This document shows positions 25,867 to 50,706 of a stretch of DNA of 64,000 nucleotides, piece by piece; the first letter of the stretch is position 1; the number at the start of each line of letters is the position of its first letter. The notes below the pieces were generated by a model. That model searched no databases and had not been told where the DNA came from. It was given only the letters and a program-made list of their open reading frames with translations. A program made the position numbers and the translations under genes. Origin of the DNA: a virus (taxonomy: Duplodnaviria; Heunggongvirae; Uroviricota; Caudoviricetes); IMG/VR virus record IMGVR_UViG_3300033144_006348; one strand, 5' to 3'.

Positions 25867-27393
25867 TTATTTTCTCAATTCTGAGCTTGAGGCTGAGCAA
25901 TCCACACCAGAACCTTCTGGTCCACATGGAATATTACCACAGTTATTAGTGATACTAAGAGTAGCAATACCTGCACTTCTAATCAATGCTGTCGCATATC
26001 TTGACAGGATTGTTAGACTTGGAGTGAATCCTAGTGGATATGGATGCAGAACAGCTGGTACATAAGGACTATATACATAAATAGCCTTTAGTTCCTCAAC
26101 TGGTTTGTATACCATTACCATTGTGCCTTGTGTTACAACTGCTGATGTTAGAACTTTCCATTTTCCACCAGCTACTGTAGCACTTCTATATCCCAGGTCT
26201 CCATCAACTGAAGATGTTCCTGTATAATTAAACGTCTGTAAATCTTCAAGGATAGCAACATCTAGTGGGTTCGCTAGAATTGTATTTCCAGCTTCAATGT
26301 TAGTATCAGTGTAAATTTGTCCAGATAGTCTGTTCAGGACAGGGATAATGTTTTCATGCCAGTATTTGGTTCCCCAAGTATACGTTACAGGGGGGGTACA
26401 AGAGAATGTGTCTGTATGACAGATATTATTCAGTCTTGTATTTGCGGTAATAAGAGCATTGATAATTTCTCTATCAATATCTAGCGCCACTTGCTGTCCT
26501 AGAATATTTACTATTTCAGCTTGCATTGAGATATCAAACAGAGCTCTCATGTCTTGCTCCATGTTGATTGTCCAGTTTGCAGAGATCTGGCGGTCTCTAG
26601 CATATAGACGAATCTTTTCAACTGATAGTTCAACTCTTGGGTTGATTTGGTTTTCTTCTAGTGAAGTAGTTACTGTGAAACGAGCGTACAGTACAGTTCC
26701 TACTGTGCTGGAAATGACAACTGTTCCATTTAGATAATCTACTTGACCAGAAACAACATCTGCAACTCCACCGATGCTTACACTTGATGAAAAGTGACCT
26801 TCAACAGCAGGTACGATACAAACATCTGTAAAATGAGTTCCGTCAGCCGAAACAGCGTCAATTTCAAAGTCTCTCTCGAGATGTGCTTGAGCGGGTACTA
26901 GTCCTGCTGTAGCAAGTACGTCATAACCGCTGCTTGGTACAGGCATTATAGCTGCAACCTGTGTTCCAAATGCGACACCCTGTGAAATGTCAGGTGTAAT
27001 AACAGGAGCATTATATTGCAAATCGCTATTTGATGGACTAAATTTTGCTTTAACAAACGCTTTAACTGTTTCTGGTTTATCCATTGGTGAAACAGTAATA
27101 GCTTCTTTGGCAACTAGTTTCGGATAGAACACACGAAGAATAGGCAGAGTCAGTGTTTCATACGGGTTGATCTGAAACATTGAATTTTCAAGCAGATTCA
27201 CTCTAGTATTTTCTGCTAGTTGAATAAAATCTTTTCTGTCTTTCTTATTCTCAATAGATTCGGCCAGGCCAGTTACATATGTTTCAAAGGCAGCATCATC
27301 AACAAGAATAGCTTTTAAATTACCGGGCTTTGATGGGTCTATTCCACTGATTTTTTTAGTGGTTCTATAGACTTCGGTCAGTAATTCTTTCAT
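25867..27393 (-). CDS. Putative major capsid protein (508 aa)
   Basis: Large protein at the end of the head-gene block. Strong RBS GGAGGAAAATAATTATG on the minus strand. The bidirectional terminator lies downstream. Assignment is by size and position, with no motif evidence. Confidence 0.45.
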   Translation of the reverse strand: MKELLTEVYRTTKKISGIDPSKPGNLKAILVDDAAFETYVTGLAESIENKKDRKDFIQLAENTRVNLLENSMFQINPYETLTLPILRVFYPKLVAKEAITVSPMDKPETVKAFVKAKFSPSNSDLQYNAPVITPDISQGVAFGTQVAAIMPVPSSGYDVLATAGLVPAQAHLERDFEIDAVSADGTHFTDVCIVPAVEGHFSSSVSIGGVADVVSGQVDYLNGTVVISSTVGTVLYARFTVTTSLEENQINPRVELSVEKIRLYARDRQISANWTINMEQDMRALFDISMQAEIVNILGQQVALDIDREIINALITANTRLNNICHTDTFSCTPPVTYTWGTKYWHENIIPVLNRLSGQIYTDTNIEAGNTILANPLDVAILEDLQTFNYTGTSSVDGDLGYRSATVAGGKWKVLTSAVVTQGTMVMVYKPVEELKAIYVYSPYVPAVLHPYPLGFTPSLTILSRYATALIRSAGIATLSITNNCGNIPCGPEGSGVDCSASSSELRK

Positions 27394-29204: not shown

Positions 29205-29870
29205 TTAAATCCACTTTTGAAAAAACTGAATAACTTTTGTTTCTACTAGCTTATCAAAATAATCTGGTACAAAACACCTATCTCCAACACAAACTATACC
29301 AGACTGAGACTCAAATAAAGTACTATATTCAAACTTCATTTCATTAAAGTCAACAACTGCAGATTTATGTGAAGGCATAGAGACAGCATCAAAGGCAATA
29401 ATTGTTAATGGAGATTTAACCACATTGTGATCTTGTAATCTTTCAAGCTCAGCTAGACCCCTCATGGAAAAACCAACGCCAGTTCTATCCTTCAGCAGTC
29501 CTAGTAAAATCCCTCCATTGGGTGTACTTGTAGTTTCCATTTCTCCAACAAGATGATTTCCTGTAAAATCGAACTCTCTTACAATATGTGATACCTTCTC
29601 TAAAGACACTGTAGTTTGTCTTATACCATCAATTTGTTCGTTTCCAGTTGGAAGAGGATGGTCTAATTCAGAATAAAAAGCTCTTCTCTTAATTCTTCCT
29701 TCACAATTACTCATTCCTTCTTTTAATACTCCTCTAGGATACATTCTATTATTTTGATTGACCTCATCAACTGATTGTATAGGACATCTGAATATAGCTT
29801 TAGATGGTGTTTCTTTAATCATTTTGGCTTCTGAAAAAACACTTTGTTCTATAATAAGTTTACTTGACAT
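29205..29870 (-). CDS. Head-morphogenesis protein (possible prohead protease or core protein), tentative
   Basis: Placed between the putative scaffold and the small head proteins. No confident motif. Confidence 0.25.
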   Translation of the reverse strand: MSSKLIIEQSVFSEAKMIKETPSKAIFRCPIQSVDEVNQNNRMYPRGVLKEGMSNCEGRIKRRAFYSELDHPLPTGNEQIDGIRQTTVSLEKVSHIVREFDFTGNHLVGEMETTSTPNGGILLGLLKDRTGVGFSMRGLAELERLQDHNVVKSPLTIIAFDAVSMPSHKSAVVDFNEMKFEYSTLFESQSGIVCVGDRCFVPDYFDKLVETKVIQFFQKWI

Positions 29871-30919: not shown

Positions 30920-32845
30920 TTAAATTCCTGGAGTTCCTCCAAAATTACCCATTCCTCCAAGACCTCCCATTTCATCTTCTTTCTTTTCTGGATCAATAAT
31001 TTCATCAATTTTAGTATCGACTTCATATTTCTCAACATCTCCCCAATCAATTTGAGGTAAGTATCTTTTCTTTGAATACTCTTTTGGAATTCCAATTCTT
31101 TCAAGGTTTTCAATTAGAGTGGTTATTTCTCCCATGTATCTAGATTCTCTTTCAAATTGGAGTGACCTAGGTGGAGGTAGCGAAATATCTACATTATCTA
31201 AAATAGTTAATGCTTCCTCAGGATTTATAATTTGAAAAACTTTTAGTATTAACTCTCTAAGTTGATGACTTAAATATTTTTGATGTCCAATTACAGTTCT
31301 AGCAAATAAAATATTTTCTTCACTTAATGCAGCTTTATTTGAAAGGTTCTCTTCAATACCGATAAAAGCTGGTGGAACTCCCAAACTAGCTACCATTTGA
31401 TCTCTCATAAATTTTAGTTCATCAACTTTACTTCTAATATCTACATTTCCTTCATTAAAGGTTGAAATATCTACAAATGGTTTCCCATCTTTTTGTGGAA
31501 TATATACATCCTCAAATGTTGTGATCATACTTGGAATTGTATCTACTGTTCCAAAACTATCGAGACTAACTTTTCTTTTTCTGAACTCTTCTTTCATTAA
31601 CTCAATAGCTTTTCTTGCGTCTCTTGGGAGACCGATTTCAATAGCAATTTTTCGTTTTTCTGTGGATCTTGAAAGTCTTTGAACTGCTAATGCTGTTTCT
31701 AATGAAATTAATACCTTAGCAGAATATTGAGTACTATCAAAAATTGATTCTCCATATGGATAATATTTTGTTGTCGGTAATATAAAATGGACCATTTTGT
31801 CAGGTGGAATATAGCGAATATTTACTGATTTGTTATAGTCAGAATTTGTTAGCATTGATAACACCAAATCTTTTATTTCTTTGTTATCTTTAAAATCTGC
31901 CATTTGTGGGAGTTTATTTGCTAAACTTTTTAGAATAGCGATACATATGTTATTAATGGCTTCATCTGCTAAAGTGGCACCAGGAACTGCAGTAATGGAA
32001 GGAAAAACTAAATAACCAAAGCAAATAGGGAACATTGCACTTTGTAGTTTAACAACAAACTCTGGAGTGTGAAATATCAACTGTAGATTTTTTAATAATT
32101 TTTTCTCTTTTGCCTTTTCTTTTTTGGTAGGTTTATCTAGATCGGCTTCTTGAAGAGCTGTATAATCCATGTTAATTTCATATTCTTCTTTATCAATAGT
32201 TTGAGTTATTGTTTCTCTAAATCCATTGATGTACTGATCTTTGATTACTTGCTGATATAGTGGAGCTTCATTTAATAGGGTCTGACTTGTTAGAGCTTCC
32301 TTCGGACCTCCGATTTCACAAAATAAATCTCCATACATTAGAGTGTTTCTAACAATAAGATCCAAACGCCTTTCCAAATCTATTAGTTTTATAACTTCTT
32401 TGACATATCTTGTTCTTGAAGCTGTGGGTACCTCATCCTCAAGAAAGGTTTGTGGTTTTACTTCCAATACCATTTTTGTAATATCATCAGGTGATAAAAT
32501 GTTATCGACTAATACATTTAAAGCTCTATAAGCATAATTTATTTGAGATACAATTGCTTGATATGCTTTATACCTCATAATTCGACTACCCTGACCAAAT
32601 GCTGTAGGAGTTACACCTTGAGCAAATAACCCACCACCTGCACCTGTTATTTTCACATCTGCTGTTTTTGAAATTAAACTACGAACTAGTTGGATATAAC
32701 CATTTCGGCCTGAGTTGTTTTTAAAAACTAAAATATCTTTAACAGCTTGATCTAATTTAGCATCAATTTTACTAGTTTGTGTCTTAACGATAGTGGATTT
32801 TAATTTCTGTAGTGTGTTCTGTACTGATGTTAGAGGACCTGCCAT
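30920..32845 (-). CDS. Putative portal protein (641 aa)
   Basis: Size and position upstream of the scaffold/capsid genes. Gly-rich C-terminal tail. No Walker motif, which argues against a terminase. Confidence 0.35.
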   Translation of the reverse strand: MAGPLTSVQNTLQKLKSTIVKTQTSKIDAKLDQAVKDILVFKNNSGRNGYIQLVRSLISKTADVKITGAGGGLFAQGVTPTAFGQGSRIMRYKAYQAIVSQINYAYRALNVLVDNILSPDDITKMVLEVKPQTFLEDEVPTASRTRYVKEVIKLIDLERRLDLIVRNTLMYGDLFCEIGGPKEALTSQTLLNEAPLYQQVIKDQYINGFRETITQTIDKEEYEINMDYTALQEADLDKPTKKEKAKEKKLLKNLQLIFHTPEFVVKLQSAMFPICFGYLVFPSITAVPGATLADEAINNICIAILKSLANKLPQMADFKDNKEIKDLVLSMLTNSDYNKSVNIRYIPPDKMVHFILPTTKYYPYGESIFDSTQYSAKVLISLETALAVQRLSRSTEKRKIAIEIGLPRDARKAIELMKEEFRKRKVSLDSFGTVDTIPSMITTFEDVYIPQKDGKPFVDISTFNEGNVDIRSKVDELKFMRDQMVASLGVPPAFIGIEENLSNKAALSEENILFARTVIGHQKYLSHQLRELILKVFQIINPEEALTILDNVDISLPPPRSLQFERESRYMGEITTLIENLERIGIPKEYSKKRYLPQIDWGDVEKYEVDTKIDEIIDPEKKEDEMGGLGGMGNFGGTPGI

Positions 32846-35311: not shown

Positions 35312-36796
35312 CTATAGACCAGTAAAACCAGTAAAACATTCTATGAGTTGATCTGTTGATGCGTCTGGCTTTCTTTTATTTGCTAATGGTGATACTTCTT
35401 TAAATTTAAATTTTGAGAAATCAACAGTAAAATTAACAGATATGTTTGCTTTACCACTACGGTTTTTTCCTATTTTACAAAATACTATATCTTGATCTGT
35501 TTGACTCTTAGCTAGAAGAGCTACCAAATCAGCATGCTCTACTTTTTTGATTGATTCTGACATTTGATCAAGATTTAAACTTTGAGCATCAGGGATTTTA
35601 TACACGCCTCTTCCCAGTTGTGAAGCAGTTATTACCGGAATATTATATTGAACTGCAAGAGTTTTTAATGAAAGTGTTATATGACCAAGTTCTAATCTAT
35701 ACATATCATATTTTATATCAGTTTTTAATAGATCAAGATAATCAATGTATAGTCCAGCAATACGTTCTTCCCCATATTCATTGATTACATCATCAACAAC
35801 TGCCATAATATCAAGTGTACTTATACTCATTGCAGGGAAATACTTCATTATAATTGTAGAACCTTTTTTAGCAAGCTCATTATTTATTAGTTGCTTAATA
35901 TCAACACCTTTCATAATATCATCAATCATTTGTGGAATTGTTCTATCAAACATTGGTTGATATGTTCTCATTAGAGATTCTTCAATAGTATTTTCCATAG
36001 TGATATAAATATAAACTTTAGTTATCTCTCCAGGTTTTGGAATCTGATCTTCTAGAGTTGGGGATTTTGTAGCAGATTTGTAGATTGTATTATTTAAAAA
36101 AGTAGATTTACCAGCACCTGAGCCACCTCCAAAAACATATAGTCTTGAAGGTTCGTATCCTCCAGACATTACTTCTTGATCTAAATAAGCAAACCCCGTT
36201 GACGTAGTGTTTTTAGATTGATATTTACTTTTGATCATATCTATAACATGAGTGTAATCGTCTTTGACTAAATCAAGAGAAGCAGCAGCTTCAAGAGTAA
36301 TTGATCTATTACTCTCCATCACATTTGTATATAGTTTTTTAATGGTTACCTCATAGTCTTCAACCATATCATCTATTGAATCAAATGAACCATCCCTGAT
36401 AGAATCTAACACTCTACTAAGTTCATCATAGTTGTTGAACAAAGCATTAATCTTTTTTCTGAGTCTTATTTGTTTTATTATATCCTGAAAAATTTGTTCA
36501 TTAATATTTTCATTCATTTTGAGATCTAAAAAATCAACATGCTGCTTGAACTTTTCACTAAATAAAATACTATCTATAATATTTTCAATAGTTTTATCTT
36601 CAAGAGCCATTGAAGAAATCTTTTTAAGGCAATCTAATTTATTTTTTACAGTTATTGGAACATCAATTGTTTCTTTCTCTGAATAAAAATCTAAAATATC
36701 AAGTATGTCTCTATATAATGCCTTACTTCTCTTAATCATTGACTTTTTATTCAATAGTATTGAAAAACATGAATTTAAAAAAGATTCAGTTATCAA
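35312..36796 (-). CDS. DnaB-like replicative DNA helicase
   Basis: Walker A LYVFGGGSGAGKSTFLNN. Walker B/H2 LYIDYLDLLK resembles DnaB hhIDYLQLM. PVITASQLGR resembles DnaB PVIALSQLNR. Confidence 0.65.
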   Translation of the reverse strand: MITESFLNSCFSILLNKKSMIKRSKALYRDILDILDFYSEKETIDVPITVKNKLDCLKKISSMALEDKTIENIIDSILFSEKFKQHVDFLDLKMNENINEQIFQDIIKQIRLRKKINALFNNYDELSRVLDSIRDGSFDSIDDMVEDYEVTIKKLYTNVMESNRSITLEAAASLDLVKDDYTHVIDMIKSKYQSKNTTSTGFAYLDQEVMSGGYEPSRLYVFGGGSGAGKSTFLNNTIYKSATKSPTLEDQIPKPGEITKVYIYITMENTIEESLMRTYQPMFDRTIPQMIDDIMKGVDIKQLINNELAKKGSTIIMKYFPAMSISTLDIMAVVDDVINEYGEERIAGLYIDYLDLLKTDIKYDMYRLELGHITLSLKTLAVQYNIPVITASQLGRGVYKIPDAQSLNLDQMSESIKKVEHADLVALLAKSQTDQDIVFCKIGKNRSGKANISVNFTVDFSKFKFKEVSPLANKRKPDASTDQLIECFTGFTGL

Positions 36797-36811: not shown

Positions 36812-37222
36812 TCATTTTATTGTTTTTTCTAAATCCTCTATAATAGGATCTGAGGTTTTAGCTTCTGGTAGTATTTTTCTAGCAAAATATTTTCCTATTT
36901 TTTTAGCATACTCACGTAAATCTTCAGTTCTTGGATCAGGTGGATATTTATGTTTTAGAATAGAAGATGAGATAGATGTAGCAGAGACAGAATTACTAGA
37001 TTGACTAGTGGATGTAGAAGAACAGGTATAATCAGGTTCTGGTACTCCCATGATATTAGTAACCCAATCAGTTTTTCCTTCTCCATCACATTGATAACAA
37101 GGAACCTCATATTCTCCTTCCATCCAGTAGTCATTTGTAATAAAAGTTACTCCAGTTCCATCACATAAACTACATATTACTTCGCCTTCTTCAAGATTAA
37201 GTTCCTTCATTGTAATCTCCAC
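36812..37222 (-). CDS. DnaJ-type zinc-finger (CxxCxGxG) mini-protein with a Ser/Thr-rich tail
   Basis: CSLCDGTGV..CYQCDGEGKTDW: two CxxCxGxG repeats plus the conserved KTDW motif. Confidence 0.45.
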   Translation of the reverse strand: MEITMKELNLEEGEVICSLCDGTGVTFITNDYWMEGEYEVPCYQCDGEGKTDWVTNIMGVPEPDYTCSSTSTSQSSNSVSATSISSSILKHKYPPDPRTEDLREYAKKIGKYFARKILPEAKTSDPIIEDLEKTIK

Positions 37223-37475
37223 ATATGTTTTTTATAATGTCTCTATCAATATCTTCCTTTAACTTTTCAGCCATCACTTTAAAAATCTCAAATTCTCCAG
37301 TGAACCAACATATATCAGGACGTTCTCCCATAGCATTAGTAATCCAATCAGTTTTTCCTTCTCCATTACATTTTGAGCATGTAAATTGAGCATATTGGTA
37401 TCCCAAATATGGAGTACACCCTTCTCCCTCACACTTAGAACATATTACTTCGCCTTCTTCAAGTACAATATCCAA
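37197..37475 (-). CDS. DnaJ-type zinc-finger (CxxCxGxG) mini-protein
   Basis: CSKCEGEGC..CSKCNGEGKTDWITNAMGERPD, a paralog of 36812 and 39119. Confidence 0.45.
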   Translation of the reverse strand: MDIVLEEGEVICSKCEGEGCTPYLGYQYAQFTCSKCNGEGKTDWITNAMGERPDICWFTGEFEIFKVMAEKLKEDIDRDIIKNICGDYNEGT

Positions 37476-37694
37476 TTATTCTTCCCCCTTAATTAGTTTC
37501 CCATTTTCTTTTAAGACCTCATTAGCTATATTATACTGATCTTCCTCACTAAATTTACTAATATCAAGATATGAAATCAGATGATTTATAAAGTCGTCAC
37601 AAGATTCTTTGCACATTCCTCTAACTATGCATGTTTTACAAGGAGTGGGATGTTTAATTGAAGTATTAAATTCATCAAGTCTTTTATAGATCAT
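37476..37694 (-). CDS. Cys-rich zinc-ribbon mini-protein of the P-C-x2-C-I-V family (PCKTCIVRGMCKESC), encoded in the replication block
   Basis: Same core motif as the tRNA-array mini-proteins. Confidence 0.4.
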   Translation of the reverse strand: MIYKRLDEFNTSIKHPTPCKTCIVRGMCKESCDDFINHLISYLDISKFSEEDQYNIANEVLKENGKLIKGEE

Positions 37695-39079
37695 ACTGTT
37701 AATACCCTTTTTCTTTCATCAAGTTCTACAAATTCATCTTTTGCTAAAACTTTATTGATAAGATACTCACAATAATCTTCATCAAGATTGGTTAACATAT
37801 CCAACGATCTTGCTATACTGAAAGACTTAATCTTTTGTTTTTTTGTTATTTTTCCTTGGTTAAGAATGCTTGTAGCATGGAGGCAAGATTGATGAAATTC
37901 TTCTATTTCTCCATTTACATATAATGGATAAATATCGCCTGCGTAATCTCGCAACCACCCTTGAATTTCAGAAAATAAAAGGATTGGATAAAATAAAGTA
38001 AGATAAATTTTTAAATCTTCATTATATGTATTGGTTTCATCATTATATATTCTATCAACATCAATTCGTTTGAAGTTGAGAGTATCTGCTACATGATCAA
38101 CTAACCTCTGTGCAGCATCAATACATCTTTCTCCTTTGTAGAATCTTTTATCAATATCGGCAGACTTAAGGCTCATTTTCCTAACATATCCATCACCATC
38201 TTTAACATGAATATATCTTGCCATTTGACTTTGCTTATAAGGACCAGATGAATCATAAGTCATATTCAATTTAATTTTATGCTTATCCCAAACAATTTTA
38301 GTAAAAAATTCATAGAATAAAATATCTCTCCAGTTTGCACCTCCTAAAATATGGAAGTTGAGAAAGTCTCTATTATATTTTTTACATTCATTTAAGAGCG
38401 GGATTAATGGAAGGACATAGATAATACAGGGGATAGACATATCAGTAGCCATATTAGCTACTATACCACCTGTTCCATGTGATTGAAAATAAGGAAATAG
38501 TTCATTGTCTCTCATGATTCGAGTATATATATCCCAAAGTTTAGGAGTTCTAAAATGATGAATATATACAATTTTATCACGAACTACTTTTGGAAGGTCT
38601 CTTGCTTGTGTGTATGACTCTAAATTGAGTTTATAAACATCGTAGAAATTATGGAATATTTTACATCCGGGTCCAGGTGGAATATCTAAAATAAAAGCTT
38701 TGGCAAATAACTCATGATTATTTTTCAACCATTCATAATACATTTTAAATAAATTCTCTGATCTTTCTCTGGAAAATCGACCAGTAGATATTTGAAACCC
38801 GCCGCTATCAACATAAAAATCACATTTATCAAATATACCCATCTCTATACACTGATTAAACATTCGGGTTTCATTTATATCATGTTTTTCAAGTTTCTTT
38901 TTCTTATCGAAGTTTTGTCCATATGAGTGAAGAAAACCAGAGCAAGTAGTCGACAAAAATTTCGCTACATCTGCCCTAGTAAAGTTATCATGAAATTGTC
39001 CTCTTTCTCCCTTAATAAATCTATCAACAATGCCTGCTAAGGTTTCAAATCCAGCAAGGATATAACCACTTCTAACCAT
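37691..39079 (-). CDS. tRNA-guanine transglycosylase superfamily protein, DpdA-like (candidate DNA 7-deazaguanine transglycosylase)
   Basis: FYVDSGGFQIS matches the TGT catalytic-region signature TDSGGFQ. 462 aa with no obvious Zn-binding C-terminal motif, consistent with the DpdA-type branch. QueE-like gene nearby. Confidence 0.45.
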   Translation of the reverse strand: MVRSGYILAGFETLAGIVDRFIKGERGQFHDNFTRADVAKFLSTTCSGFLHSYGQNFDKKKKLEKHDINETRMFNQCIEMGIFDKCDFYVDSGGFQISTGRFSRERSENLFKMYYEWLKNNHELFAKAFILDIPPGPGCKIFHNFYDVYKLNLESYTQARDLPKVVRDKIVYIHHFRTPKLWDIYTRIMRDNELFPYFQSHGTGGIVANMATDMSIPCIIYVLPLIPLLNECKKYNRDFLNFHILGGANWRDILFYEFFTKIVWDKHKIKLNMTYDSSGPYKQSQMARYIHVKDGDGYVRKMSLKSADIDKRFYKGERCIDAAQRLVDHVADTLNFKRIDVDRIYNDETNTYNEDLKIYLTLFYPILLFSEIQGWLRDYAGDIYPLYVNGEIEEFHQSCLHATSILNQGKITKKQKIKSFSIARSLDMLTNLDEDYCEYLINKVLAKDEFVELDERKRVLTV

Positions 39080-39118
39080 TCTAAAACTCCCTTTTATTAT
39101 TTTGTTCCCAATTCACAT

Positions 39119-39334
39119 TTAAAATTCTATAGCACCAATTGCTAAATCTTTTATACCAACTGCTTTTTCAATCCAATCTACTTTACCATGACCAGAACAT
39201 TTAAAACATATTTTTTTATGATCCTTGATATTTAAAATAGATCCTACTTCTATTCCGTAACCATTACACTCAGGACATAACTCTTCTCCTTCTTTTACAA
39301 TTACAAAATCTCTCGTCCAATAATTAAAGGCCAC
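39119..39334 (-). CDS. DnaJ-type zinc-finger (CxxCxGxG) mini-protein
   Basis: CPECNGYG..CFKCSGHGKVDW. Confidence 0.45.
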   Translation of the reverse strand: MAFNYWTRDFVIVKEGEELCPECNGYGIEVGSILNIKDHKKICFKCSGHGKVDWIEKAVGIKDLAIGAIEF

Positions 39335-39900
39335 TATTCCATAACCTCAATAGTATAAGGCTCACCAACAGCGAAAGAAAATTCTGCAGCAGCTTTAAGA
39401 GCAGTCAAAACTCTTTTAGATGGAGACTTAACTCTTTTAGAAGTAAAAAATGATCCCAATGCTGTATTTGCTCCTGACCCTATAGCATTATAGTATCCAT
39501 ACGTTTTATTCATTTGGAAATCAAGTAAAATGTCATAGAGCTCACCTTTCCATGCTATTAAAAAATTGGACTGTTGTATTACAGCTCCATCTTCATCATT
39601 ACATATAACTCCCTTTTTAGTAAAATACTCATACATAGCATCAGGCATTTCTTTTATATCTTTAGGTGGAGTAAAGTAATCAGGTTTTATAAGTTGGCCA
39701 GTTCTAATACTTCCAGTAAATCCAATAAGATAGTCTCCATTCCAAAAAAGCTTTTCACAAAAAACAGGTCTATATTCAGCACGAGGATTAGTTGCAACTC
39801 CATCCGCACCCATATAAACTTTGCCATTTTGTAACAAACCAACAACACATGACATACTTATTCTCCCTTTAACTGTATATTTTCTTGCATCCTTAAACAT
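39334..39900 (-). CDS. HslV/proteasome-beta-like Ntn-hydrolase peptidase
   Basis: VYMGADGVAT and AIGSGANTALG parallel the HslV motifs (GDGQAT, AIGSGG). An N-terminal Ser (MSCVVG) sits where HslV has Thr. Confidence 0.45.
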   Translation of the reverse strand: MFKDARKYTVKGRISMSCVVGLLQNGKVYMGADGVATNPRAEYRPVFCEKLFWNGDYLIGFTGSIRTGQLIKPDYFTPPKDIKEMPDAMYEYFTKKGVICNDEDGAVIQQSNFLIAWKGELYDILLDFQMNKTYGYYNAIGSGANTALGSFFTSKRVKSPSKRVLTALKAAAEFSFAVGEPYTIEVME

Positions 39901-40661
39901 TTTGCTAAGTCAAAAACATAATCGTAAATATGCAGACCCTTAGACGAAGCTATCATTTCTCCATCTTCAACTCCAATTTCTGCTGCAACATACTCTTTTA
40001 ATAATTGAATTGCTGCTAAATTTGCTGGTAATCCATTCCACATATCCCATGATCTAAAATATGGATAAAAATGTAATTTGCCGTCCTGTATTCGTGTGTC
40101 TATATGTCTTAAACATGGAGGATCTTTAAGTAACATATCTGTTGGATGTGCCACCTGTAAAACCATTTGATTATTTCTAAACCCTTTATTTTTATAAGTC
40201 CATATCAGTAGATCTATTTGATTAAGACAAGTACACTTAAACTCTTTATCATAAAAAATTATCTCTAACTCAGATAATGTATCTAGTTCATTAATATAAA
40301 TATCAACCTTACCAATATAATGCAACGCTGCTGGAGGAATAGGATATCTTGTTAATCTCTGACCATAAGTGTAACTCTCCCCTTCTTTTAATTCTCCAGT
40401 CATCAAATAAGGAAGATACCCATCTAAATAATCATCTGCAACTGGATTTGGAATCCCATACTGTGGTTCAATTTGTGGTAGTAAAGGTCTTTCGCCAGGA
40501 TGTGTAATATGAATATCAACATAATCAAATTCCAACCTTTTTTGACCAGCATATGACCCTCTATCAATTGTAAAAACGCTTCCCTCAGTTATCATTCTAA
40601 ATAATGTTTGAAACCAAGCATCTCCTAAATGTGTAGCTTTTATATCTTGTTTATTTAACAC
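39858..40661 (-). CDS. Thymidylate synthase (ThyA) family enzyme; may be a dNMP hydroxymethylase rather than a true TS
   Basis: DPPCLRHIDTRIQDGKLHFYPYFRSWDMWNGLPANLAAIQLL parallels ThyA LPPCH..DGKLS.QLYQRS.D.FLGLPFNIASYALL. Confidence 0.55.
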   Translation of the reverse strand: MLNKQDIKATHLGDAWFQTLFRMITEGSVFTIDRGSYAGQKRLEFDYVDIHITHPGERPLLPQIEPQYGIPNPVADDYLDGYLPYLMTGELKEGESYTYGQRLTRYPIPPAALHYIGKVDIYINELDTLSELEIIFYDKEFKCTCLNQIDLLIWTYKNKGFRNNQMVLQVAHPTDMLLKDPPCLRHIDTRIQDGKLHFYPYFRSWDMWNGLPANLAAIQLLKEYVAAEIGVEDGEMIASSKGLHIYDYVFDLAKCLRMQENIQLKGE

Positions 40662-41010
40662 CGTGAAGAATACCTCCTTGTGGGATTACTACAGCAGTTC
40701 CTTCTTGGGACATTAATTCTACAGAAGTCAATTGACTTATTAAATTTTTATCAGTAAGTTTCCCATATACGTCTTCGTATCTGAGAACTTTAAGAATCCT
40801 GTTTTTAATAACTATAGTCTGGCCTCCATGTTGAAGATGAAAAATTAAAACATCTCCAACTTTAATTGCAGAGACATCTTCTCCAACTGTTACAACTCTT
40901 CCATAACCTTGAGGATCTATAATTGCATCAGTAGGAGCAATTATTCCTCCACTAGATTTTTGTCTCTTTAATTCTTCAACGATAATCTTGTCTTTTACTG
41001 CTTCCAGCAT
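40651..41010 (-). CDS. GroES/gp31-like co-chaperonin
   Basis: Size about 110-120 aa. N-terminal MLEAVKDKIIVEELKRQKSSGGIIAPT fits the GroES pattern (roof hairpin, mobile loop GGI). Confidence 0.5.
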   Translation of the reverse strand: MLEAVKDKIIVEELKRQKSSGGIIAPTDAIIDPQGYGRVVTVGEDVSAIKVGDVLIFHLQHGGQTIVIKNRILKVLRYEDVYGKLTDKNLISQLTSVELMSQEGTAVVIPQGGILHGVK

Positions 41011-41296
41011 CTTGTTTTCTCCTTTTCATTTGATATTTTCTTGCTCTATCTTGCATCTCTTTCTTTTTTTCTTCCTCTTTTTTGAGCATTCTGATTGCTC
41101 TAGCTCTTTTCTTCCTCTTTTTTATACTAGGTTTTTCATGAAACATAGAATCTCGAAACTCTTTTGCGATTCCGCTTTTAGAATACTTTTTCCTGAACCT
41201 CTTGATAAGTTCGTGAGTAGATTCTCCCTTTTTCTGGACAACACATATTCCAAAATTCTCTTCTGGCTGATAATGTTCAGGTCTTTCTAAGTGCAT
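40976..41296 (-). CDS. rpsU: Ribosomal protein bS21-like protein with N- and C-terminal extensions
   Basis: ..ICVVQKKGES..LIKRFRKKYSKSGIAKEFRDSMFHEKPSIKKRKKRARAIR aligns with bacterial bS21 (..VIKV.[41 protein letters not shown]). Confidence 0.5.
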   Translation of the reverse strand: MHLERPEHYQPEENFGICVVQKKGESTHELIKRFRKKYSKSGIAKEFRDSMFHEKPSIKKRKKRARAIRMLKKEEEKKKEMQDRARKYQMKRRKQDAGSSKRQDYR

Positions 41297-41583: not shown

Positions 41584-42270
41584 TTATACAAAACCATAAA
41601 TTATATGACTTCGTGACGAAAAATTGAATTTGTACTTCTCTGCAACATCAAAAACTTCTCCTGAATTTTTGATTAGCGTACTTCTATTTGTACCCTCTGG
41701 CATTAACCAAACTCTTCTACTTGCGAATCTATCTTTTTTCATTAATTGAGATAATATTTCTAAATAATCAATCACAGTAGATCGAGTCTCATAAACAATC
41801 TTAATATAAACATCATCAAAATCTAATAATTCTTTAGTTTTTTCAACCGCTTCTCTGAGATCTTCAGGTGTAAATATTTTTGGTGAATATATAAACTTTA
41901 CATTTTTAGCCTTAGATGTTGATAAAACTAGTCGTGGTAATTTATATCCATTTGACTCAACATTTACAATTGGATACTCTAATTCATTTAATAATGCAAG
42001 AGTTTCAGCATAATGTTTCGGTACCGTAGGTTCTCCACCTGTTATTAACAAACCGCAATTTGTATCATCTATCTGTTTTTGAATGTCTGATAAAAGGTGG
42101 GGTGCCTCTGCTGAGATACGCATTTTTACAGATGTATCACACCAAGAGCATTTGAGGTTACACGTTTTGAACCTGAGGATAAGCATTGCTCGGCCCATAT
42201 CTGGACCTTCCCCTTGAAAACTCCTAAAATTTTCGATTAGTCTTACCGATTCCATAAATTCCCCTTTCAT
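41584..42270 (-). CDS. queE: Radical-SAM 7-carboxy-7-deazaguanine synthase (QueE)-like enzyme
   Basis: IENFRSFQGEGPDMGRAMLILRFKTCNLKCSWCDT fits the QueE N-terminus (F.T.QGEG..G.P..F.R..GC.L.C.WCDT). A GGEP motif is also present. Confidence 0.55.
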   Translation of the reverse strand: MKGEFMESVRLIENFRSFQGEGPDMGRAMLILRFKTCNLKCSWCDTSVKMRISAEAPHLLSDIQKQIDDTNCGLLITGGEPTVPKHYAETLALLNELEYPIVNVESNGYKLPRLVLSTSKAKNVKFIYSPKIFTPEDLREAVEKTKELLDFDDVYIKIVYETRSTVIDYLEILSQLMKKDRFASRRVWLMPEGTNRSTLIKNSGEVFDVAEKYKFNFSSRSHIIYGFV

Positions 42271-42286: not shown

Positions 42287-45200
42287 TTAAAAAGTCAATA
42301 CTTCCATGTTTTTCTGTACATCTAATAACGGTTTTAACATCAATTCATATCTATCAACAAATACAAATTTTAGAGTTGCTTTAGTATCTCTTATGAAATA
42401 ATCTGGTAATTTTTCCTCTTCGTCGGGGATTGCTATTACTTGTAACTTTTTCCCTTCTGAAATAAACTTATGATACTTGTTCCTAACATCTTCTGGAGCT
42501 TTCATAATATCAACGCCTGAAACCCAATACATATATGCTCTAGCACCAGGTCTATGACTCATATACATTATTTCATTCCATGCTTCCATAGCCTTAACTC
42601 CCTGTGGAATGAGTTTATAATCTTTCAATGGTCTTCCATATGACACAGGCCTTGCTATGGTTTTACTTCCTTCCTTAATTAATCTGATAAATTCCCCTTC
42701 TTTACTTTGGACAAATTTTAATAGGCCTGATATTAATATCTTTTCAGATTTTAAAATTAACTCTGAAAGTTCAGTTAGAAACTCTTTTGATTTACTTGGG
42801 TAGTCTGATCTTTTAATCTCTACTCCCATATAACTAATTTCGTCCACATCTTCTCCTTCTATATTTATAACACGAATTGCATATCTCTTTTTAGCTAAAA
42901 ATAAGCCTCTTGAAATAACCAACTCATTTTTTAACATCAATCTGTTAAAGTCCATATCTGTATTATGTTTCTTTACAACTTCAATAATTTTATCATTGTT
43001 TAAAAACTCTTTTATTTTAGAACACCAAGAAAGAATATTTTCAACTGTCTTATCTTCTGGAAAATTTTCAAAACAACAAAAAATTGAGTCAGTATCACCG
43101 GTTACAATGTATTCATTACTTCTATCTGGCATTGCCTTTTCAAACATTTCTTGTTTAGTTAGAGGATTTGGTTTTACATATGGTAGTCCTGTACTTAAAT
43201 GCCTCATAAAAGCATCAGCCTCAATGATAGAAGTTTTTAGAGCTTCTTGCCCTGATAGTGTTACTGCAGCAGCTAGAGATGTATCAAAAAATCTGAATGC
43301 TTTATTTGCAACAACTCCATATAAAGTATTAGCTAGCACTTTATAAACTAATTGCCTTGTATAAAAGAATGCTCTTCCATCTTGATCTTTCTTGTCGATT
43401 GCCTCAAACATCTTCTTTTTATATTCTTTTCTGGACTTCATTAAATTATCAACAATTTCTCCAAAAACAGAAAACTCTTTCTTCTGAGGTTTGAAAAAAC
43501 AACCATTAATAGTAAATATTAATTCATCATCTTTTATTTTTTTAAACAGTTGATCCTTAGAAACTTTAACTAATTTATTTTCATACAATGGGTCAATATA
43601 CACTTCAATTTTTTCTGGTAGATTGTCTGGATAATATGTCAATTCATATCCTAAATGAGGATCTTTTGTTTTCATTACATAACTATTTACCCCTATATTG
43701 TATGTAATCATTAAACTTGGATATAGTGAAGCAAAATCAAAGTCTGTGATATGATCATAGATTCCAGGAATTGGTTCAAATACAAATGCTCCTGGATAAT
43801 CTTTCTTTTTAACATGAGGATCAGCATTTTTTGATGCAAGTCCCTTTTTATTCAAGTATGAAACCATCAATGTATCAATTTGTCCGAACGGTGAAGATCC
43901 TGTATCAAAACTTGCATTACAAATAATCCTTAACTCATTCAACAAATTTATATGAGATAATTTATTTTCAAGACTCTCCAAAATTTCAGCATCTCTAATA
44001 TTATACTCTATCGTTGTATTTAACATCTTCCAGTACATTTCGTTAAATTTAAGAGGAAGTTGTATCTTGGTTATTTCTAATTCATGTTGTGCAATAAAAC
44101 CAAGCTTATAGTTCTCCATCTTTGTGAATGTAAAAAATTTATATAAAAACTCTTGATCCAAAATAACACAACCTGGAATATGGCAAATATATTTAGAACC
44201 ATCAATATACACTTCTCCAAAATTTGAAAGTGAATTAGGCGGCATCCCTATTTTATTCATACGGTTATAAATATAGTCCATATCAAAGTTAATGAAGTTC
44301 CACCCACTCATAAAATCTGGATCATCTTTTTTAAAGTCTTTAATAAAAGTATTTAATAACTGTCTTTCATTACTGAATATTTTAATTTCAACTCCTTCTT
44401 GATCTTTAATTGGTTCAGTTTTATTATCAATAACGTAAGTAGTTTTCTTTCCATTTAAAATTGTAGTAATCATATTGATCGGAAACAATGATTTCTTTGG
44501 ACTGGGGAATATAGTTTCTTTTCCAGTATCAACCTCAATATCACAAAACATCACATTATTTTGTGATTTCTGTGGTTCTCCCTCATTAAAGAAATAATAA
44601 TCCATTGTATGTTTCGCTGTAATTTTATAGTCGCCTTCATATGTAATCTTTGGATCTAAACTAAATCTGTCTTTGTATGGAATTGAAATCTGATTCAGGT
44701 CATCATATGGAACTAATTTCCTTGCTTCAACTCCCTCTGGAACTTGATAACATACAAACTCATCACTTTCTTGGTGATAACATTTAAAATTATGTTTGTC
44801 TCTAAAAATATATAAAACTTTACTCTTTTTATTTAAATACTGAACATCTATTAATCTATACTCATCCGTATAAAACTTATCTGGAATCCTGTATCTATGA
44901 ACGCCTTTTCCTAGCGTTTTCCCTTTTACAGTTGCTTTTATATCAATCTTCTTTCCACTAATTAATTCAGCAACCTTTGCTATATCAGCTTCAAATTTTG
45001 GCATCCATAAATTTTTATTTCTATTTACAAACGATGGATGAACTGTCAAGAATAATTTATAATCCTCCCACTCAAAAATCTGTCCGTGGATATTAGTTAT
45101 TCCACTCTTGGCAATTCCAAAAGCAGACATTGGGCTTCCGCCCATCAAAAGAACTAAATCTGGATTGCATACTCGAATCATATTCATACAATTCTCTTTA

Positions 45201-45550
45201 CATCTTTCAATAACATCATCAGTTGGATTTCCTGTAGTTCCATCTGGATTTAATGTCTGACATAAAACAACATTTGTTAAAAGATATTTAATTTTATTCA
45301 ACCCAAACATTTCAAAATATTGACGAAATACTTTTCCCGCAGTTCCTATCAATGGTTGTCCTTTCTTGATTTCATTCTTTCCAGGATTTTCAGCTACAAC
45401 CACAAGAGAAACTTTAGATAAATCATCTTCTGAATTAGTTTCTATCATACAAGAAGGTGTATCTAAAAGAGGACACACTGAACAGTTTGCAAATGATTTT
45501 TTTATTGATTCCAAATATATACCCCTTTCTTTTTGATTGTTTGTTCCCAT
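42287..45550 (-). CDS. Family-B DNA polymerase with 3'-5' exonuclease and an N-terminal family-4 UDG-like domain
   Basis: N-terminus: C..C.L, VVAENPGKNE..GQPLIGTAGKVF and HPSFV, as in UDG family 4. Exo I DIEVDTG. Motif B KVLANTLYGV. Motif C VTGDTDSIF. Confidence 0.75.
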   Translation of the reverse strand: MGTNNQKERGIYLESIKKSFANCSVCPLLDTPSCMIETNSEDDLSKVSLVVVAENPGKNEIKKGQPLIGTAGKVFRQYFEMFGLNKIKYLLTNVVLCQTLNPDGTTGNPTDDVIERCKENCMNMIRVCNPDLVLLMGGSPMSAFGIAKSGITNIHGQIFEWEDYKLFLTVHPSFVNRNKNLWMPKFEADIAKVAELISGKKIDIKATVKGKTLGKGVHRYRIPDKFYTDEYRLIDVQYLNKKSKVLYIFRDKHNFKCYHQESDEFVCYQVPEGVEARKLVPYDDLNQISIPYKDRFSLDPKITYEGDYKITAKHTMDYYFFNEGEPQKSQNNVMFCDIEVDTGKETIFPSPKKSLFPINMITTILNGKKTTYVIDNKTEPIKDQEGVEIKIFSNERQLLNTFIKDFKKDDPDFMSGWNFINFDMDYIYNRMNKIGMPPNSLSNFGEVYIDGSKYICHIPGCVILDQEFLYKFFTFTKMENYKLGFIAQHELEITKIQLPLKFNEMYWKMLNTTIEYNIRDAEILESLENKLSHINLLNELRIICNASFDTGSSPFGQIDTLMVSYLNKKGLASKNADPHVKKKDYPGAFVFEPIPGIYDHITDFDFASLYPSLMITYNIGVNSYVMKTKDPHLGYELTYYPDNLPEKIEVYIDPLYENKLVKVSKDQLFKKIKDDELIFTINGCFFKPQKKEFSVFGEIVDNLMKSRKEYKKKMFEAIDKKDQDGRAFFYTRQLVYKVLANTLYGVVANKAFRFFDTSLAAAVTLSGQEALKTSIIEADAFMRHLSTGLPYVKPNPLTKQEMFEKAMPDRSNEYIVTGDTDSIFCCFENFPEDKTVENILSWCSKIKEFLNNDKIIEVVKKHNTDMDFNRLMLKNELVISRGLFLAKKRYAIRVINIEGEDVDEISYMGVEIKRSDYPSKSKEFLTELSELILKSEKILISGLLKFVQSKEGEFIRLIKEGSKTIARPVSYGRPLKDYKLIPQGVKAMEAWNEIMYMSHRPGARAYMYWVSGVDIMKAPEDVRNKYHKFISEGKKLQVIAIPDEEEKLPDYFIRDTKATLKFVFVDRYELMLKPLLDVQKNMEVLTF

Positions 45551-46167: not shown

Positions 46168-46806
46168 ATGTCAACAGAGTTAATACCTTTAGCTGAAGCG
46201 GAGAAATTTTTGGGTATGGGTAACCTCCCATACGATAAAGATAGAGTTCATAAAAATTGTGACATTTTAGTAGAATGCGCTACAGAAAATGAGGAAGCTG
46301 AAAAAATTCCTCTTTATTATGACGCGAGATTTATTTGCTTGAATGTTATAGGTGAAGCTCAACTTGTCAAAACGGGACAGTTTCATCTTGAATCTCCGCT
46401 AGCAGATGCCTGTGATCGGTGTAAAGGTGTTGGACGAATGCTAAAGCGGGAAATGAAGGAAATAGAAGTTGGATGTCACGACTGCGGCGGCGAGGGTGGG
46501 ACCAAAGAGGAATGCCCTGCATGTAATGGAACCAGGCGACATGTTAGAAAATTTCCAGGGTTGACAATTTCTGTTAACTGCACTCAATGTGATAATAATG
46601 GAGCGAAGATCGCAAAATGCGAAGTTTGCCGAGGATCTGCTAAGGTTAAAAAATCAATTAGCACAGGCAAATTCGCTTCTTCAAGCCAATGTAAATCATG
46701 TAAAGGAACCGGAAAGAAACCTCCAAAGAAACCAAAACGAATTTTTCATGACGATTTTCAGAGTCAATTGGCCGGTTTTCTTAAAAATGCAGCTAACGTA
46801 AAGTAG
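46168..46806 (+). CDS. DnaJ central-domain-like zinc-finger protein (four CxxCxGxG-type repeats)
   Basis: CDRCKGVGR, CHDCGGEGG, CPACNGTRR, CTQCDNNG, CEVCRGSAK, CKSCKGTGK. Lone plus-strand gene after the ncRNA-like segment. Confidence 0.45.
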   Translation: MSTELIPLAEAEKFLGMGNLPYDKDRVHKNCDILVECATENEEAEKIPLYYDARFICLNVIGEAQLVKTGQFHLESPLADACDRCKGVGRMLKREMKEIEVGCHDCGGEGGTKEECPACNGTRRHVRKFPGLTISVNCTQCDNNGAKIAKCEVCRGSAKVKKSISTGKFASSSQCKSCKGTGKKPPKKPKRIFHDDFQSQLAGFLKNAANVK

Positions 46807-48574: not shown

Positions 48575-48910
48575 TTATCCTTTCTCTAGTTCACTTCTAC
48601 ACTCTAGTAACATTTCTCTAATTACATCTGGAGTTGTTTCTAATTTTAAATGTTCCGCTAATATAGTTGCAACTTCTTTCTGAATATCAATATCAAAAAA
48701 TTTGTTCACATCAGTCTCAAGATTGATACTCCAGTTTGCTTCAACTACTTTTTTGGCGATTATATTATCTTCCATGTCTAAAAAACATATTCCTAATTTT
48801 AAAGTTTTCATTTGATCTCCTCTCTTACACTCGTCACATGGATCTCCAATAGCATCACTTCCCATAAATTCTGTCCCACATGATGGACATCTCTGTTTGG
48901 TTGGCATCAT
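48575..48910 (-). CDS. Hypothetical protein with an N-terminal CxxC..CxxC zinc ribbon (111 aa)
   Basis: CPSCGTEF..CDECKRG. The C-terminal part is paralogous to 48271..48570. Confidence 0.35.
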   Translation of the reverse strand: MMPTKQRCPSCGTEFMGSDAIGDPCDECKRGDQMKTLKLGICFLDMEDNIIAKKVVEANWSINLETDVNKFFDIDIQKEVATILAEHLKLETTPDVIREMLLECRSELEKG

Positions 48911-49566: not shown

Positions 49567-50143
49567 ATAGAGTGTTTGTTAGTTTTATAATTACTTCGGA
49601 GATGGGATAGCTTTGGGTTGTGATCCCCAAAGTGAACTCCGTGAATTCATAGCCAGGATTATGAGTGGCCAGAGCTTAATCTCTCTAGGTACCACTGTAA
49701 CTGGCCCCTATATTTAATATAGAACAAATTGAAAATTTGTGGGGTTTTGCTCGTTTGTGGAAATAACGAGACCTCCGGATTAGGATGCGTTATATGCCGG
49801 CTTTTAAAAATATGACGGGTTGCTAGTATGGAGGGATGTATAGAAGGAGTACAGGATACAGTCCTGGTATTTCGCGGATACAAAAACTGAGACGGTATGC
49901 TATAGTCAGTTGTGACGTTTGGGCCTCATCGCCGACGGACCACAGACCGAGAAAGACTCCGGTTCGTCCTCCGCCTCCCTGCCGCCGGATACGAAAGCGG
50001 CTATGTGGGAGTGCGTTATCGGCTTCGGCTGGGATTTTTCCCCCGCCAGAATGAAACCGCAATTGGAATAGAATCCGTCCCCCACTTTATTTTAGCAGGT
50101 GACTAAGACTAATTCTCACTGATAGAGTTTTAATTTTCCTGCG
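49567..50143 (+). ncRNA. Candidate structured non-coding RNA (~580 nt), class unknown
   Basis: Locally ~55-60% GC around 49.9-50.06 kb versus ~33% background. Four short mutually overlapping ORFs on both strands. Promoter-like motif upstream, terminator downstream. Confidence 0.3.
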
Positions 50144-50206
50144 AATTGATAGGGATGCTAAGGATGCTGTCAGTGCTAGAGAGCATCCTTCCTATCAATT
50201 TTTTTA
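50144..50206 (+). terminator. Intrinsic terminator closing the 49.57-50.14 kb non-coding segment, upstream of tRNA-Pro
   Basis: Long bulged hairpin AATTGATAGG[gatgct]AAGGATGC...GCATCCTTCCTATCAATT followed by TTTTTTAG. Confidence 0.55.
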
Positions 50207-50698: not shown

Positions 50699-50706
50699 AG
50701 ATGAGT

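Follow-up and report, generated by a model that had tools for sequence, protein, structure and literature searches.

The stretch of DNA considered here (64,000 nt, IMG/VR record IMGVR_UViG_3300033144_006348; "the window" below means this stretch at its full length) belongs to an uncultured, T4-like phage, and raises the question of what three small zinc-knuckle proteins encoded between positions 36,812 and 39,334, here called mini1, mini2 and mini3, are for. A preliminary description of the sequence had taken them for isolated DnaJ zinc-finger domains and, together with a GroES-like and an HslV-like gene nearby, for a phage proteostasis toolkit. The comparisons presented below lead to a different answer. 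The minis are a distinct phage-only family and not DnaJ fragments, and their C-terminal tails are modular and hypervariable, a subset of them being, on sequence similarity, diverged copies of short conserved segments of virion and morphogenesis proteins. In the literature that was searched we found no description of the family-specific core, of the tandem arrays or of modular tails derived from virion proteins; what is already known is the fold class, and small phage proteins of this kind have been annotated and left uncharacterised.

The mini proteins and their fold class

The four open reading frames (ORFs) with cysteine repeats that the preliminary description had named, three minis and a longer fourth protein, are all present where it had placed them. 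The minis are encoded as follows.

36812..37210, minus strand: mini1, 132 aa, a zinc knuckle with two CxxCxGxG repeats, a Ser-rich linker and a conserved C-terminal segment
37197..37475, minus strand: mini2, 92 aa, TTG start, a knuckle (residues 1-50), a linker and an amphipathic helix (residues 59-85)
39119..39334, minus strand: mini3, 71 aa, GTG start, a knuckle and a short conserved C-terminus (...AIGAIEF)

A six-frame scan of the 64 kb for CxxCxG gave 16 matches, 11 of which lie inside the minis and the fourth protein. Each of the three minis carries two full CxxCxGxG repeats and the motif GK[TV]DW[IV], as had been described, and their paralogy is borne out by BLASTP (E = 8e-15 for mini1 against mini2 and 1e-10 for mini3 against mini2). 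Their alignment is invariant at E-G-E, four Cys, four Gly and K-x-D-W. The start codon of mini1 is most likely the ATG at 37210 (MKELNLEEGEV, with GGAG upstream) rather than the GTG at 37222. Its C-terminal segment reads DPRTEDLxEYAKKIGKYFARKxLPEAKxSxPIIEDLE, and the tail is kept in the orthologues P0003 (locus L014), P0046 and a 203-aa protein of L004.

The knuckle is predicted to consist of about 50 residues around a single zinc, and to be kin to one hairpin of the DnaJ cysteine-rich (CR) domain (repeats 2-3), to anti-TRAP and to BSD2. The best solved matches of a profile built from the 52 core positions are the CR domain of DnaJ (1exk, E = 8e-6), DNAJA3, DNAJA2, BSD2 and anti-TRAP, and the alignment with 1exk spans repeats 2-3 of the CR domain with the hairpin between them. 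The same proteins rank first in a Foldseek search with the AlphaFold model, the top match being the CR domain of DNAJA2; the AlphaFold2 model of mini2 itself has the knuckle at residues 1-50 and the helix at 59-85, with a pLDDT of 85. Of 150 family members, 145 match PF00684 (DnaJ_CXXCXGXG) and 118 match PF15777 (Anti-TRAP) at E ≤ 0.01. The three minis score 20.3, 17.1 and 20.0 bits with the former, below its cut-off of 32.7, and 15.1, 17.9 and 17.4 bits with the latter, below its cut-off of 32. No match to the J domain (PF00226) was found in the minis or in the fourth protein at E ≤ 1. Outside the zinc ligands, the conserved core includes L-E-E-G-E before knuckle 1 and G-K-x-D-W-[IV]-x-N-x-x-G after knuckle 2, two motifs that are foreign to the DnaJ domain. 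The assignment of the repeats to the DnaJ cysteine-rich type thus stands, and no match to rubredoxin or to a generic zinc ribbon, which would have spoken for another class, occurred in the profile searches. The description as isolated DnaJ zinc-finger domains holds for the type of knuckle but not beyond it, since the minis lack a J domain, carry just two repeats with one zinc site, score below the Pfam thresholds and have conserved motifs of their own.

Several known proteins resemble the minis in part. DnaJ/Hsp40 shares the CxxCxGxG motifs and the hairpin of zinc centre II in its CR domain (PF00684), but it has four repeats and two zinc sites where the minis have two repeats and one site, and the minis lack its J domain, its G/F region and its C-terminal client-binding domains. 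Anti-TRAP (RtpA, PF15777, from Bacillus) is closer in build, with about 50 residues, one zinc site formed from DnaJ-type CxxC motifs and a C-terminal helix; the model of mini2, with its one zinc knuckle and a helix behind it at the C-terminus, has this architecture, and the solved structure of anti-TRAP (3lcz) matches the family profile with E = 0.0036. Anti-TRAP competitively blocks TRAP, so that its mode of action is competitive binding of another protein. It has neither the LEEGE nor the GKxDWIxN motif, and the minis differ from it by their hypervariable tails, their phage-only range and the absence of a link to trp regulation. BSD2 (a Rubisco assembly factor, PF25436) is likewise a small stand-alone DnaJ-like zinc finger (6ekb, E = 4.6e-4; Foldseek ranks 4-6). 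It caps RbcL8 until displaced, and this capping of an assembly intermediate is a functional precedent for a cap that works by binding. Unlike the minis, BSD2 belongs to plants and their plastids, has two zinc sites and lacks a mimic tail, and the similarity is confined to the Cys motifs. These two precedents for isolated knuckles favour action by protein binding.

Phage proteins with a similar knuckle are also on record. The DNA polymerase of HMO-2011-type phages has an inserted partial DnaJ central domain with exactly two CxxCxGxG motifs (PMC9038755); this half CR domain is an insertion in a polymerase and not a free small protein, and it has no variable tail. The PHROG families 8027, 9961, 3931, 32371 and 27975, all of "unknown function", are small phage proteins with the same knuckle, and 83 of the 150 family members match phrog_8027. 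Weak structural matches to the minis also occur in BFVD, among small phage proteins annotated as "DnaJ cysteine-rich domain" or "anti-TRAP domain".

Tails that resemble segments of virion proteins

Past the core, the sequences of family members diverge completely, and the tails form recurring classes. For some of these a source can be named: the N-terminal segment of the major capsid protein (MCP) equivalent to Gol, a strand and the spine helix of the MCP, the N-terminus of the prohead protease and a tail-fibre repeat. The genes of the window that matter for this comparison are the following.

25867..27393, minus strand: major capsid protein, T4-type (Pfam Gp23, PF07068, 112.7 bits, profile positions 9-351 of 376)
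29205..29870, minus strand: prohead protease, S77-like (Pfam Peptidase_S77, 25.9 bits, narrowly missing the cut-off of 27)
48575..48910, minus strand: 111-aa ORF in which a different ribbon, CPSC...CDEC, precedes a copy of the MCP strand and spine helix
48271..48570, minus strand: 99-aa paralog of the preceding ORF (BLASTP E = 1e-20) without the Cys ribbon, carrying the same MCP-like segment

The MCP of the window meets the Gp23 cut-off across most of the domain, and its residues ~81-124 and 270-331 are the source segments of two tail classes. Class a (P0133, P0097, P0112, P0117 and an 84-aa protein of L005) corresponds to the ~40 residues that follow the predicted MCP maturation site, LLE; the tail of P0133 is 54% identical over 39 residues to window MCP 83-121, and that of P0097 matches Gp23 positions 3-34 with 26.4 bits, above the cut-off. 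Class b (P0044, P0043, a 118-aa protein of L005, and mini2) corresponds to the MCP strand and spine helix. Residues 63-113 of P0044 match Gp23 positions 149-199 with 42.4 bits (E = 8e-11), again above the cut-off, and its tail is 57% identical over 44 residues to window MCP 276-319; the stored Pfam annotation of its gene (117 aa, L012) independently names Gp23. Profiles made from nothing but the tails were compared with 207 large ORFs and matched MCPs only (class a, E = 2e-13; class b, E = 6e-7). Since the mini tails cover just 30-50 positions of the Gp23 profile, they are fragments and not capsid proteins.

In an unbiased screen, the 94 ORFs of the window of at least 100 aa were used as queries against 287 non-redundant tails. 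The MCP matched 19 of the 287, down to E = 1e-13; the other matches were the prohead protease (one tail), two small MCP-like ORFs and a fragment of a Ser-rich ORF (3-749, E = 0.008), which is borderline and was treated as low-complexity noise. The tail matched by the prohead protease is that of P0104, which copies residues 34-64 of the protease (E = 2e-4 with the window ORF and 1.1e-6 with phrog_207, head maturation protease). The evidence for other sources is weaker: the class-d tail profile has a single PDB match, the fibre protein of cyanophage P-SCSP1u (E = 8e-4), and the motif TxQA[IV]KxYVD found in tails of relatives has two copies in the 1,603-aa Ser-rich protein of the window.

The helix of mini2 (residues 59-85) is a putative degenerate copy of the MCP spine helix (...MAEKLKEDIDRDIIKNI), to judge from its alignment. 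Ungapped BLASTP of mini2 against residues 273-311 of the phage's own MCP gives E = 0.002. Its closest relatives, P0004 (71% overall identity) and P0043 (from L014, whose DnaB is 91% identical to that of the window), link it to class b, and the tails of P0043 and of a further relative, P0044, are longer and clearly MCP-derived. The tail of mini1 has no detectable parent in the window, and a homologue search with this tail alone returned no candidates. A sheath N-terminus was considered as the source of the class-c tails (PGVYxKEIDLS) but found no support, as sheath residues 3-14 matched at E of about 2, below chance matches to aminopeptidases. For the class-e tails (NKLxVYDGxxW) no parent was found among the collected loci.

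The capsid segment is also found away from the minis. ORF 48575-48910 matches Gp23 positions 149-195 (22.7 bits, E = 8e-5) and residues 270-315 of the phage's own MCP (BLASTP E = 6e-11), and it stands outside the EEGE..DW family; ORF 48271-48570 matches class-b tails. As both ORFs carry the MCP segment, the strand-plus-spine-helix piece behaves as an independent module on different N-terminal supports.

Divergence of tails and cores

Overall identity among the MCPs of relatives is 80-83%, with next to no variation in the two copied segments. The tails of the same clade, by comparison, are only 22-57% identical to the copied segments, and L045, which has a mini together with its own MCP in a single locus, gives 22% identity over 45 residues. 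Yet residues of the motifs are kept: (L/I)P..+..YPKLIA..L..V.PM in class-a tails and W(T/S)I(E/N)...(D/E)(I/V)D.EI(L/I) in class-b tails. Divergence with motif residues retained indicates that the tails are old, separately evolving copies and not recent duplications. A model of exact self-mimicry was rejected on the same figures, and the near-invariance of the MCP segments while the tails diverge fits an antagonist-like divergence.

Cores at 60-90% identity usually bear unrelated tails, a mismatch that is inflated by the representative library, in which sequences of more than 50% identity are merged. The ratio of nonsynonymous to synonymous substitution rates (dN/dS) is 0.61 for mini1 against L014 (0.52 in the core and 0.68 in the tail) and 0.59 for mini2 against P0043, compared with 0.10 for the adjoining DnaB and 0.14 for mini3 against its L004 orthologue.

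Size and range of the family

Membership was defined by a full-length match to the 52-position core profile (E-G-E, four Cys, K-x-D-W, N/G). The three minis helped to build this profile, and the independent evidence for the family is their pairwise similarity and the hundreds of full-length matches elsewhere. An exhaustive profile search gave 3,218 representatives of clusters at 50% identity at E ≤ 1e-3, of which 441 also pass 1e-10; almost all have lengths of 53-250 aa and match over the whole core. A word-indexed search found 32 small metagenomic relatives, a search of IMG/VR with the core pattern 36 loci on contigs of 8-277 kb, and a local profile search of the collected loci 201 matches in 54 loci.

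No family member was found among 50,697 deposited phage records in near-identity and protein searches with the region, mini2, P0099 and the consensus core; a search of deposited phages with P0097 hit capsid genes only, through its tail. Among 185,579 species genomes there are only three loci, in two archaeal metagenome-assembled genomes, which are probably mis-binned viral contigs.

Tandem arrays within 20 kb reach 14 copies (L038, 9944-16813), 13 copies (L054, 9360-18260) and 9 copies (L027, 5972-8343). Some of the copies in these arrays carry transmembrane segments at the N-terminus, and one protein, of 423 aa, has a large additional domain at its C-terminus. About ten members of the family (P0008, P0013, P0037, P0045, P0047, P0049, P0103, P0120, P0141 and P0145) carry a conserved N-terminal extension, (E)LIGLKKQQEK, before the knuckle.

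Genomic neighbourhood of the mini genes

The minis lie in a minus-strand block with the order PolB, QueE, S21 homologue, GroES-like, ThyA-like, HslV-like, mini3, DpdA-like, orf72, mini2, mini1 and DnaB, followed by the head genes. The slot that holds them is bordered by two genes and contains a third, as listed here.

37691..39079, minus strand: DpdA/TGT-like gene (phrog_887, E = 8e-7), one border of the mini slot
37476-37694, minus strand: orf72, a 72-aa Cys-rich ORF (CKTCIVRGMCKESC) between the DpdA-like gene and mini2
35312..36796, minus strand: DnaB-like helicase (DnaB_C in orthologues), the other border of the mini slot

Genes around the minis are tightly packed or overlapping, and Shine-Dalgarno-like sequences lie upstream of all three. 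The GTG of mini3 overlaps the stop codon of the HslV-like gene by one base, and the L004 orthologue has the identical 1-nt overlap and the identical C-terminus. From the DpdA-like gene through orf72, mini2 and mini1 to DnaB, stop and start codons overlap or abut, with plausible ribosome-binding sites. The DpdA label depends on a weak PHROG match (the E-value listed above). No family match was found for orf72, which is present solely in the window and in its closest relative, L014.

In the clade with the QueE-S21-GroES-ThyA-(HslV)-DpdA-DnaB block, 25 of 26 non-redundant loci have a mini no more than 300 bp from the DpdA-like gene, and 25 of 25 have one equally close to DnaB. The interval between these two genes holds 0-7 mini copies, with none in L020. 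In L012, a gene for a NUMOD3-type homing endonuclease (1523-2395) sits between the HslV-like and DpdA-like genes, an insertion that fits the region being a hot spot for mobile or accessory DNA. Distant family members are found in other settings: beside QueC, dCMP-deaminase and other nucleotide genes in L001, beside FolE among many small ORFs in L006, and beside clamp-loader and RNase H genes in L008, those of L006, L027 and L038 sitting in small-ORF arrays. We read the slot as a hypervariable accessory island within a conserved replication and modification block, and do not read into it a functional tie to any single neighbour. A link to 7-deazaguanine, considered because the minis abut the DpdA-like gene, was dropped as unsupported, given the distant members elsewhere and the variation of the slot from 0 to 7 copies.

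The two chaperone- and protease-like neighbours, and the fourth protein with cysteine repeats, are encoded at the following positions.

40651..41010, minus strand: GroES/Cpn10 homologue (Pfam Cpn10, PF00166, 35.1 bits, cut-off 21.1; phrog_3188)
39334..39855, minus strand: HslV/proteasome-like Ntn-hydrolase, 173 aa (phrog_1040 "peptidase HslV family", E = 1.3e-13)
46168..46806, plus strand: fourth protein, 212 aa, with a helical N-terminal region, six CxxC pairs and a conserved C-terminal NPV.. motif

The GroES-like gene is a bona fide Cpn10, as it passes the Pfam cut-off and has a mobile-loop-like SSGGII; its product matches Cpn20/GroES chains with E = 2e-6 to 1e-4, and its ...KSSGGIIAP... resembles the mobile loop of GroES. 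The HslV-like gene, with its match to phrog_1040 and, as best solved relative, the proteasome homologue BPH (5ovs, E = 0.013), is a plausible proteasome-type Ntn hydrolase. It probably starts at the ATG at 39855 (MSCVVG...). Position 3, after Met-Ser, is Cys in the window and in L004 and Thr in L005; counted from there by eye, D16 of GADG and K33 of EKL presumably line up with T1/D17/K33 of HslV. Such a Cys/Thr interchange at the putative nucleophile is unusual for a proteasome-type Ntn hydrolase. The window protein has no Pfam match, and its L012 orthologue has a faint match to Proteasome. No HslU-like gene was noticed among the annotated ORFs, the window not having been searched systematically for one. 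As neighbours of the minis, the two genes are real but not constant companions. Within 10 kb, a GroES homologue occurs in 26 of the 54 loci and an HslV-like gene in 19 of them; the mini nearest to GroES is a median of 2.8 kb away, and of 16 loci with HslV, 8 have a mini no farther than 300 bp from it, mostly those of close relatives.

The fourth protein has about six repeats (five CxxCxG and a CTQCDNNG), as had been noted, and a true DnaJ_CXXCXGXG domain that passes the Pfam cut-off (42.9 bits against 32.7) and matches 1exk with E = 0.0026. It belongs to a separate family, however, and is not a paralog of the minis; against the mini profile it aligns over one repeat only (15 columns). Its orthologues are present in 11 further loci (10 distinct sequences), usually divergent upstream of the polymerase. 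A degenerate J domain at its N-terminus was considered but gained no support, as a profile of the N-terminal family region finds no J domain in the PDB.

Possible functions

These observations lead us to prefer, tentatively, a role in which the minis act through competitive binding by mimicry via their virion-like tails, probably in host-phage or phage-phage conflict, and to place it ahead of housekeeping chaperoning. The zinc knuckle would provide a stable handle of small size and might have its own, common partner, and the tail would compete for binders of the authentic virion segment, as a competitive cap or antagonist. In a conflict, the tail might blunt host factors or sensors that read capsid segments (of the Lit/Gol-EF-Tu or CapRel type), or it might disturb the assembly of co-infecting relatives. 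Competitive mimicry in conflict is ranked first because the genes are accessory, fast-evolving and tandemly amplified, and because of the links to Gol and CapRel. The class-a profile aligns to residues 98-125 of T4 gp23, inside the most conserved gp23 segment, and Gol is, as we take it, gp23 residues 93-122. This short, most conserved segment alone binds EF-Tu and triggers Lit (PMC3014915). Gol is part of a capsid protein, whereas the class-a tails sit in separate genes, and binding of EF-Tu by them is putative. CapRelSJ46 is predicted to contact the P-domain sheet and the spine helix of the HK97-fold MCP, and escape mutations map there (PMC9712102). The two copied capsid segments therefore coincide with regions implicated as triggers of abortive infection, Gol for Lit and the spine-helix region for CapRel.

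A more elaborate form of the same idea, which we regard as unlikely, is a library of baits. Tandem-amplified knuckles would display antagonist versions of the capsid epitopes to which abortive-infection systems respond (the Gol/EF-Tu segment, and the P-domain strand with the spine helix); made before or alongside the capsid protein, they would occupy the sensors, or the host cofactors of these, without firing them, or else would poison the assembly of competing T4-like phages.

Several points weigh against competitive mimicry. At least roughly 60% of the collected tails have no recognisable parent, among them those of mini1 and mini3, and the similarity between mini2 and the MCP is weak by itself (E = 0.002-0.007). 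The sampling is biased to one phage clade and to representatives at 50% identity. Sensors of the STAND type, Avs7 among them, recognise large surfaces of a fold (PMC13581612), which a peptide of 30-50 residues is unlikely to block; as regards CapRel or Lit, a mimic of the trigger could activate them instead of blocking them. Strong conservation of the knuckle surface outside the cysteines points to a partner in common, as an adaptor or a chaperone would equally have, and the co-occurrence with GroES in 26 of the 54 loci is compatible with a role in folding.

The last two points belong to the reading in which the minis are DnaJ-type holdases or assembly chaperones that work with the GroES-like and HslV-like proteins, the tail docking on its cognate virion protein until assembly, as BSD2 holds RbcL. 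The DnaJ-CR/BSD2-like knuckle agrees with it, as do the parents of the tails, which are proteins folded and assembled in bulk, the frequencies with which GroES and HslV-like genes occur within 10 kb, and the conserved knuckle surface, which a host chaperone could bind; zinc centre II of DnaJ is needed for cooperation with DnaK. Against it, the minis have no J domain and a single zinc site. Copy number and tail type vary between relatives as close as those whose MCPs are 80-83% identical, down to the empty slot of L020; dN/dS is high, the arrays reach 14 copies, the minis are coupled to the DpdA-like gene and DnaB and not to head genes, and many loci of the wider family lack a nearby GroES or HslV. 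We therefore consider this reading doubtful, although it deserves to be kept in sight. Of the proteostasis toolkit initially proposed, the DnaJ-type knuckle and the real GroES- and HslV-like genes remain; the variable number of copies (0-7), the dN/dS of mini1 and the tails that copy virion proteins do not suit it, and accessory, fast-evolving effectors fit these features better than a fixed proteostasis kit. The minis might instead serve a protease, be it the HslV-like peptidase or a host AAA+ enzyme, as its adaptors, activators or substrates; the knuckle or C-terminal peptide would dock and the tail would select the client. Such a function would make sense of a mini gene overlapping the HslV-like stop codon, as is seen in the window, L004, L005 and L010, and of the conserved hydrophobic C-terminus of mini3 (AIGAIEF, with its dN/dS of 0.14). 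One subfamily ends in YLRR[VI]K, which to our eye is reminiscent of the LRVVK tail by which SspB presumably docks on ClpX. The tail of the HslV-adjacent mini nevertheless varies between relatives, half of the HslV-carrying loci have no adjacent mini, many mini-rich loci have no HslV, and no AAA+ partner was identified, which makes such a function improbable in our view.

Two further explanations were considered. The tails could be non-functional debris from a recombination hot spot at which a zinc-knuckle cassette, selfish or neutral, keeps being joined to random pieces of genes, and the hypervariable slot, the variable copy number, the homing endonuclease in the slot of L012 and the relaxed dN/dS would all be in keeping with this. 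The fragments are not random, however: the MCP dominates the screen (19 tails), and the same two MCP segments occur on distantly related cores with motif residues kept at 22-57% identity. The ORFs are intact, translationally coupled and provided with ribosome-binding sites, and dN/dS is below 1, so that we hold debris to be very improbable. The minis could also be regulators of transcription or translation, zinc ribbons of the Q-like or Com-like sort that bind nucleic acids, as matches to PHROGs labelled "anti-termination protein Q-like" (31 of 150 and 12 of 150 members) and the presence of lambda Q low in the Foldseek ranking might suggest. What produces those Q-like matches is the Cys motif alone, and the cores, with their LEEGE and D-W, are acidic. 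Both the profile and the fold comparison are led by DnaJ-type knuckles that bind proteins, and we give this explanation hardly any credence.

Stand-alone DnaJ-like zinc knuckles are annotated in many phages, none with an assigned function, and one group of them is a very large, virus-only, tandem-expanding family. If the minis are competitive mimics, they would represent a general means by which phages control the recognition or the assembly of their most conserved proteins, and their tails would be a ready catalogue of functionally important short motifs of virion proteins. If they are assembly caps instead, they would be the first phage analogues of end-state chaperones of the BSD2 type.

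Other features of the window

The remaining genes of the block and of the head module are listed here.

29880-30905: scaffold
30920-32845: portal, part of the T4-type head module
39858-40661, minus strand: thymidylate-synthase-like gene
40976-41296, minus strand: ribosomal protein S21 homologue (Pfam Ribosomal_S21, 46.2 bits)
41584-42270, minus strand: QueE-like radical-SAM gene
42287-45550, minus strand: family-B DNA polymerase (PolB), 1,087 aa, with an N-terminal extension of ~300 residues

The window is part of a JGI metagenome contig of 80,276 bp. The polymerase is 27% identical to gp43 of cyanomyoviruses, and no close relative of the phage was found among deposited phages. The PolB orthologue in L010 has the Pfam domains UDG, DNA_pol_B_exo1 and DNA_pol_B. 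The S21 homologue adjoins the GroES-like gene, an arrangement kept in 20 loci among those examined. The DpdA/TGT-like, QueE-like and thymidylate-synthase-like genes form a conserved block, which suggests 7-deazaguanine and/or pyrimidine modification of DNA.

The T4 late-promoter motif TATAAATA is not enriched in the window (11 found, 10 expected), and scans for sigma-70 promoters and terminators stayed at chance level. A GC-rich island without a long ORF at 49600-50150 (47-61% GC, in a genome of 33% GC) marks the junction between the minus-strand block and a plus-strand tRNA region. It has no Rfam match, and with a plus-strand fold z-score of -2.35 it is a candidate structured RNA. At the other end of the window, two giant proteins on the minus strand (2881-7692, 1,603 aa, and 482-2752, 756 aa) contain very long poly-Ser-rich tracts; neither has a match in PHROGs, and both are probably fibre or surface proteins. 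The tRNA region itself (50304-62202, plus strand) holds 11 tRNA genes (Pro, three Leu, Thr, Arg, Gln, Met, two Ser and Val) among small plus-strand ORFs.

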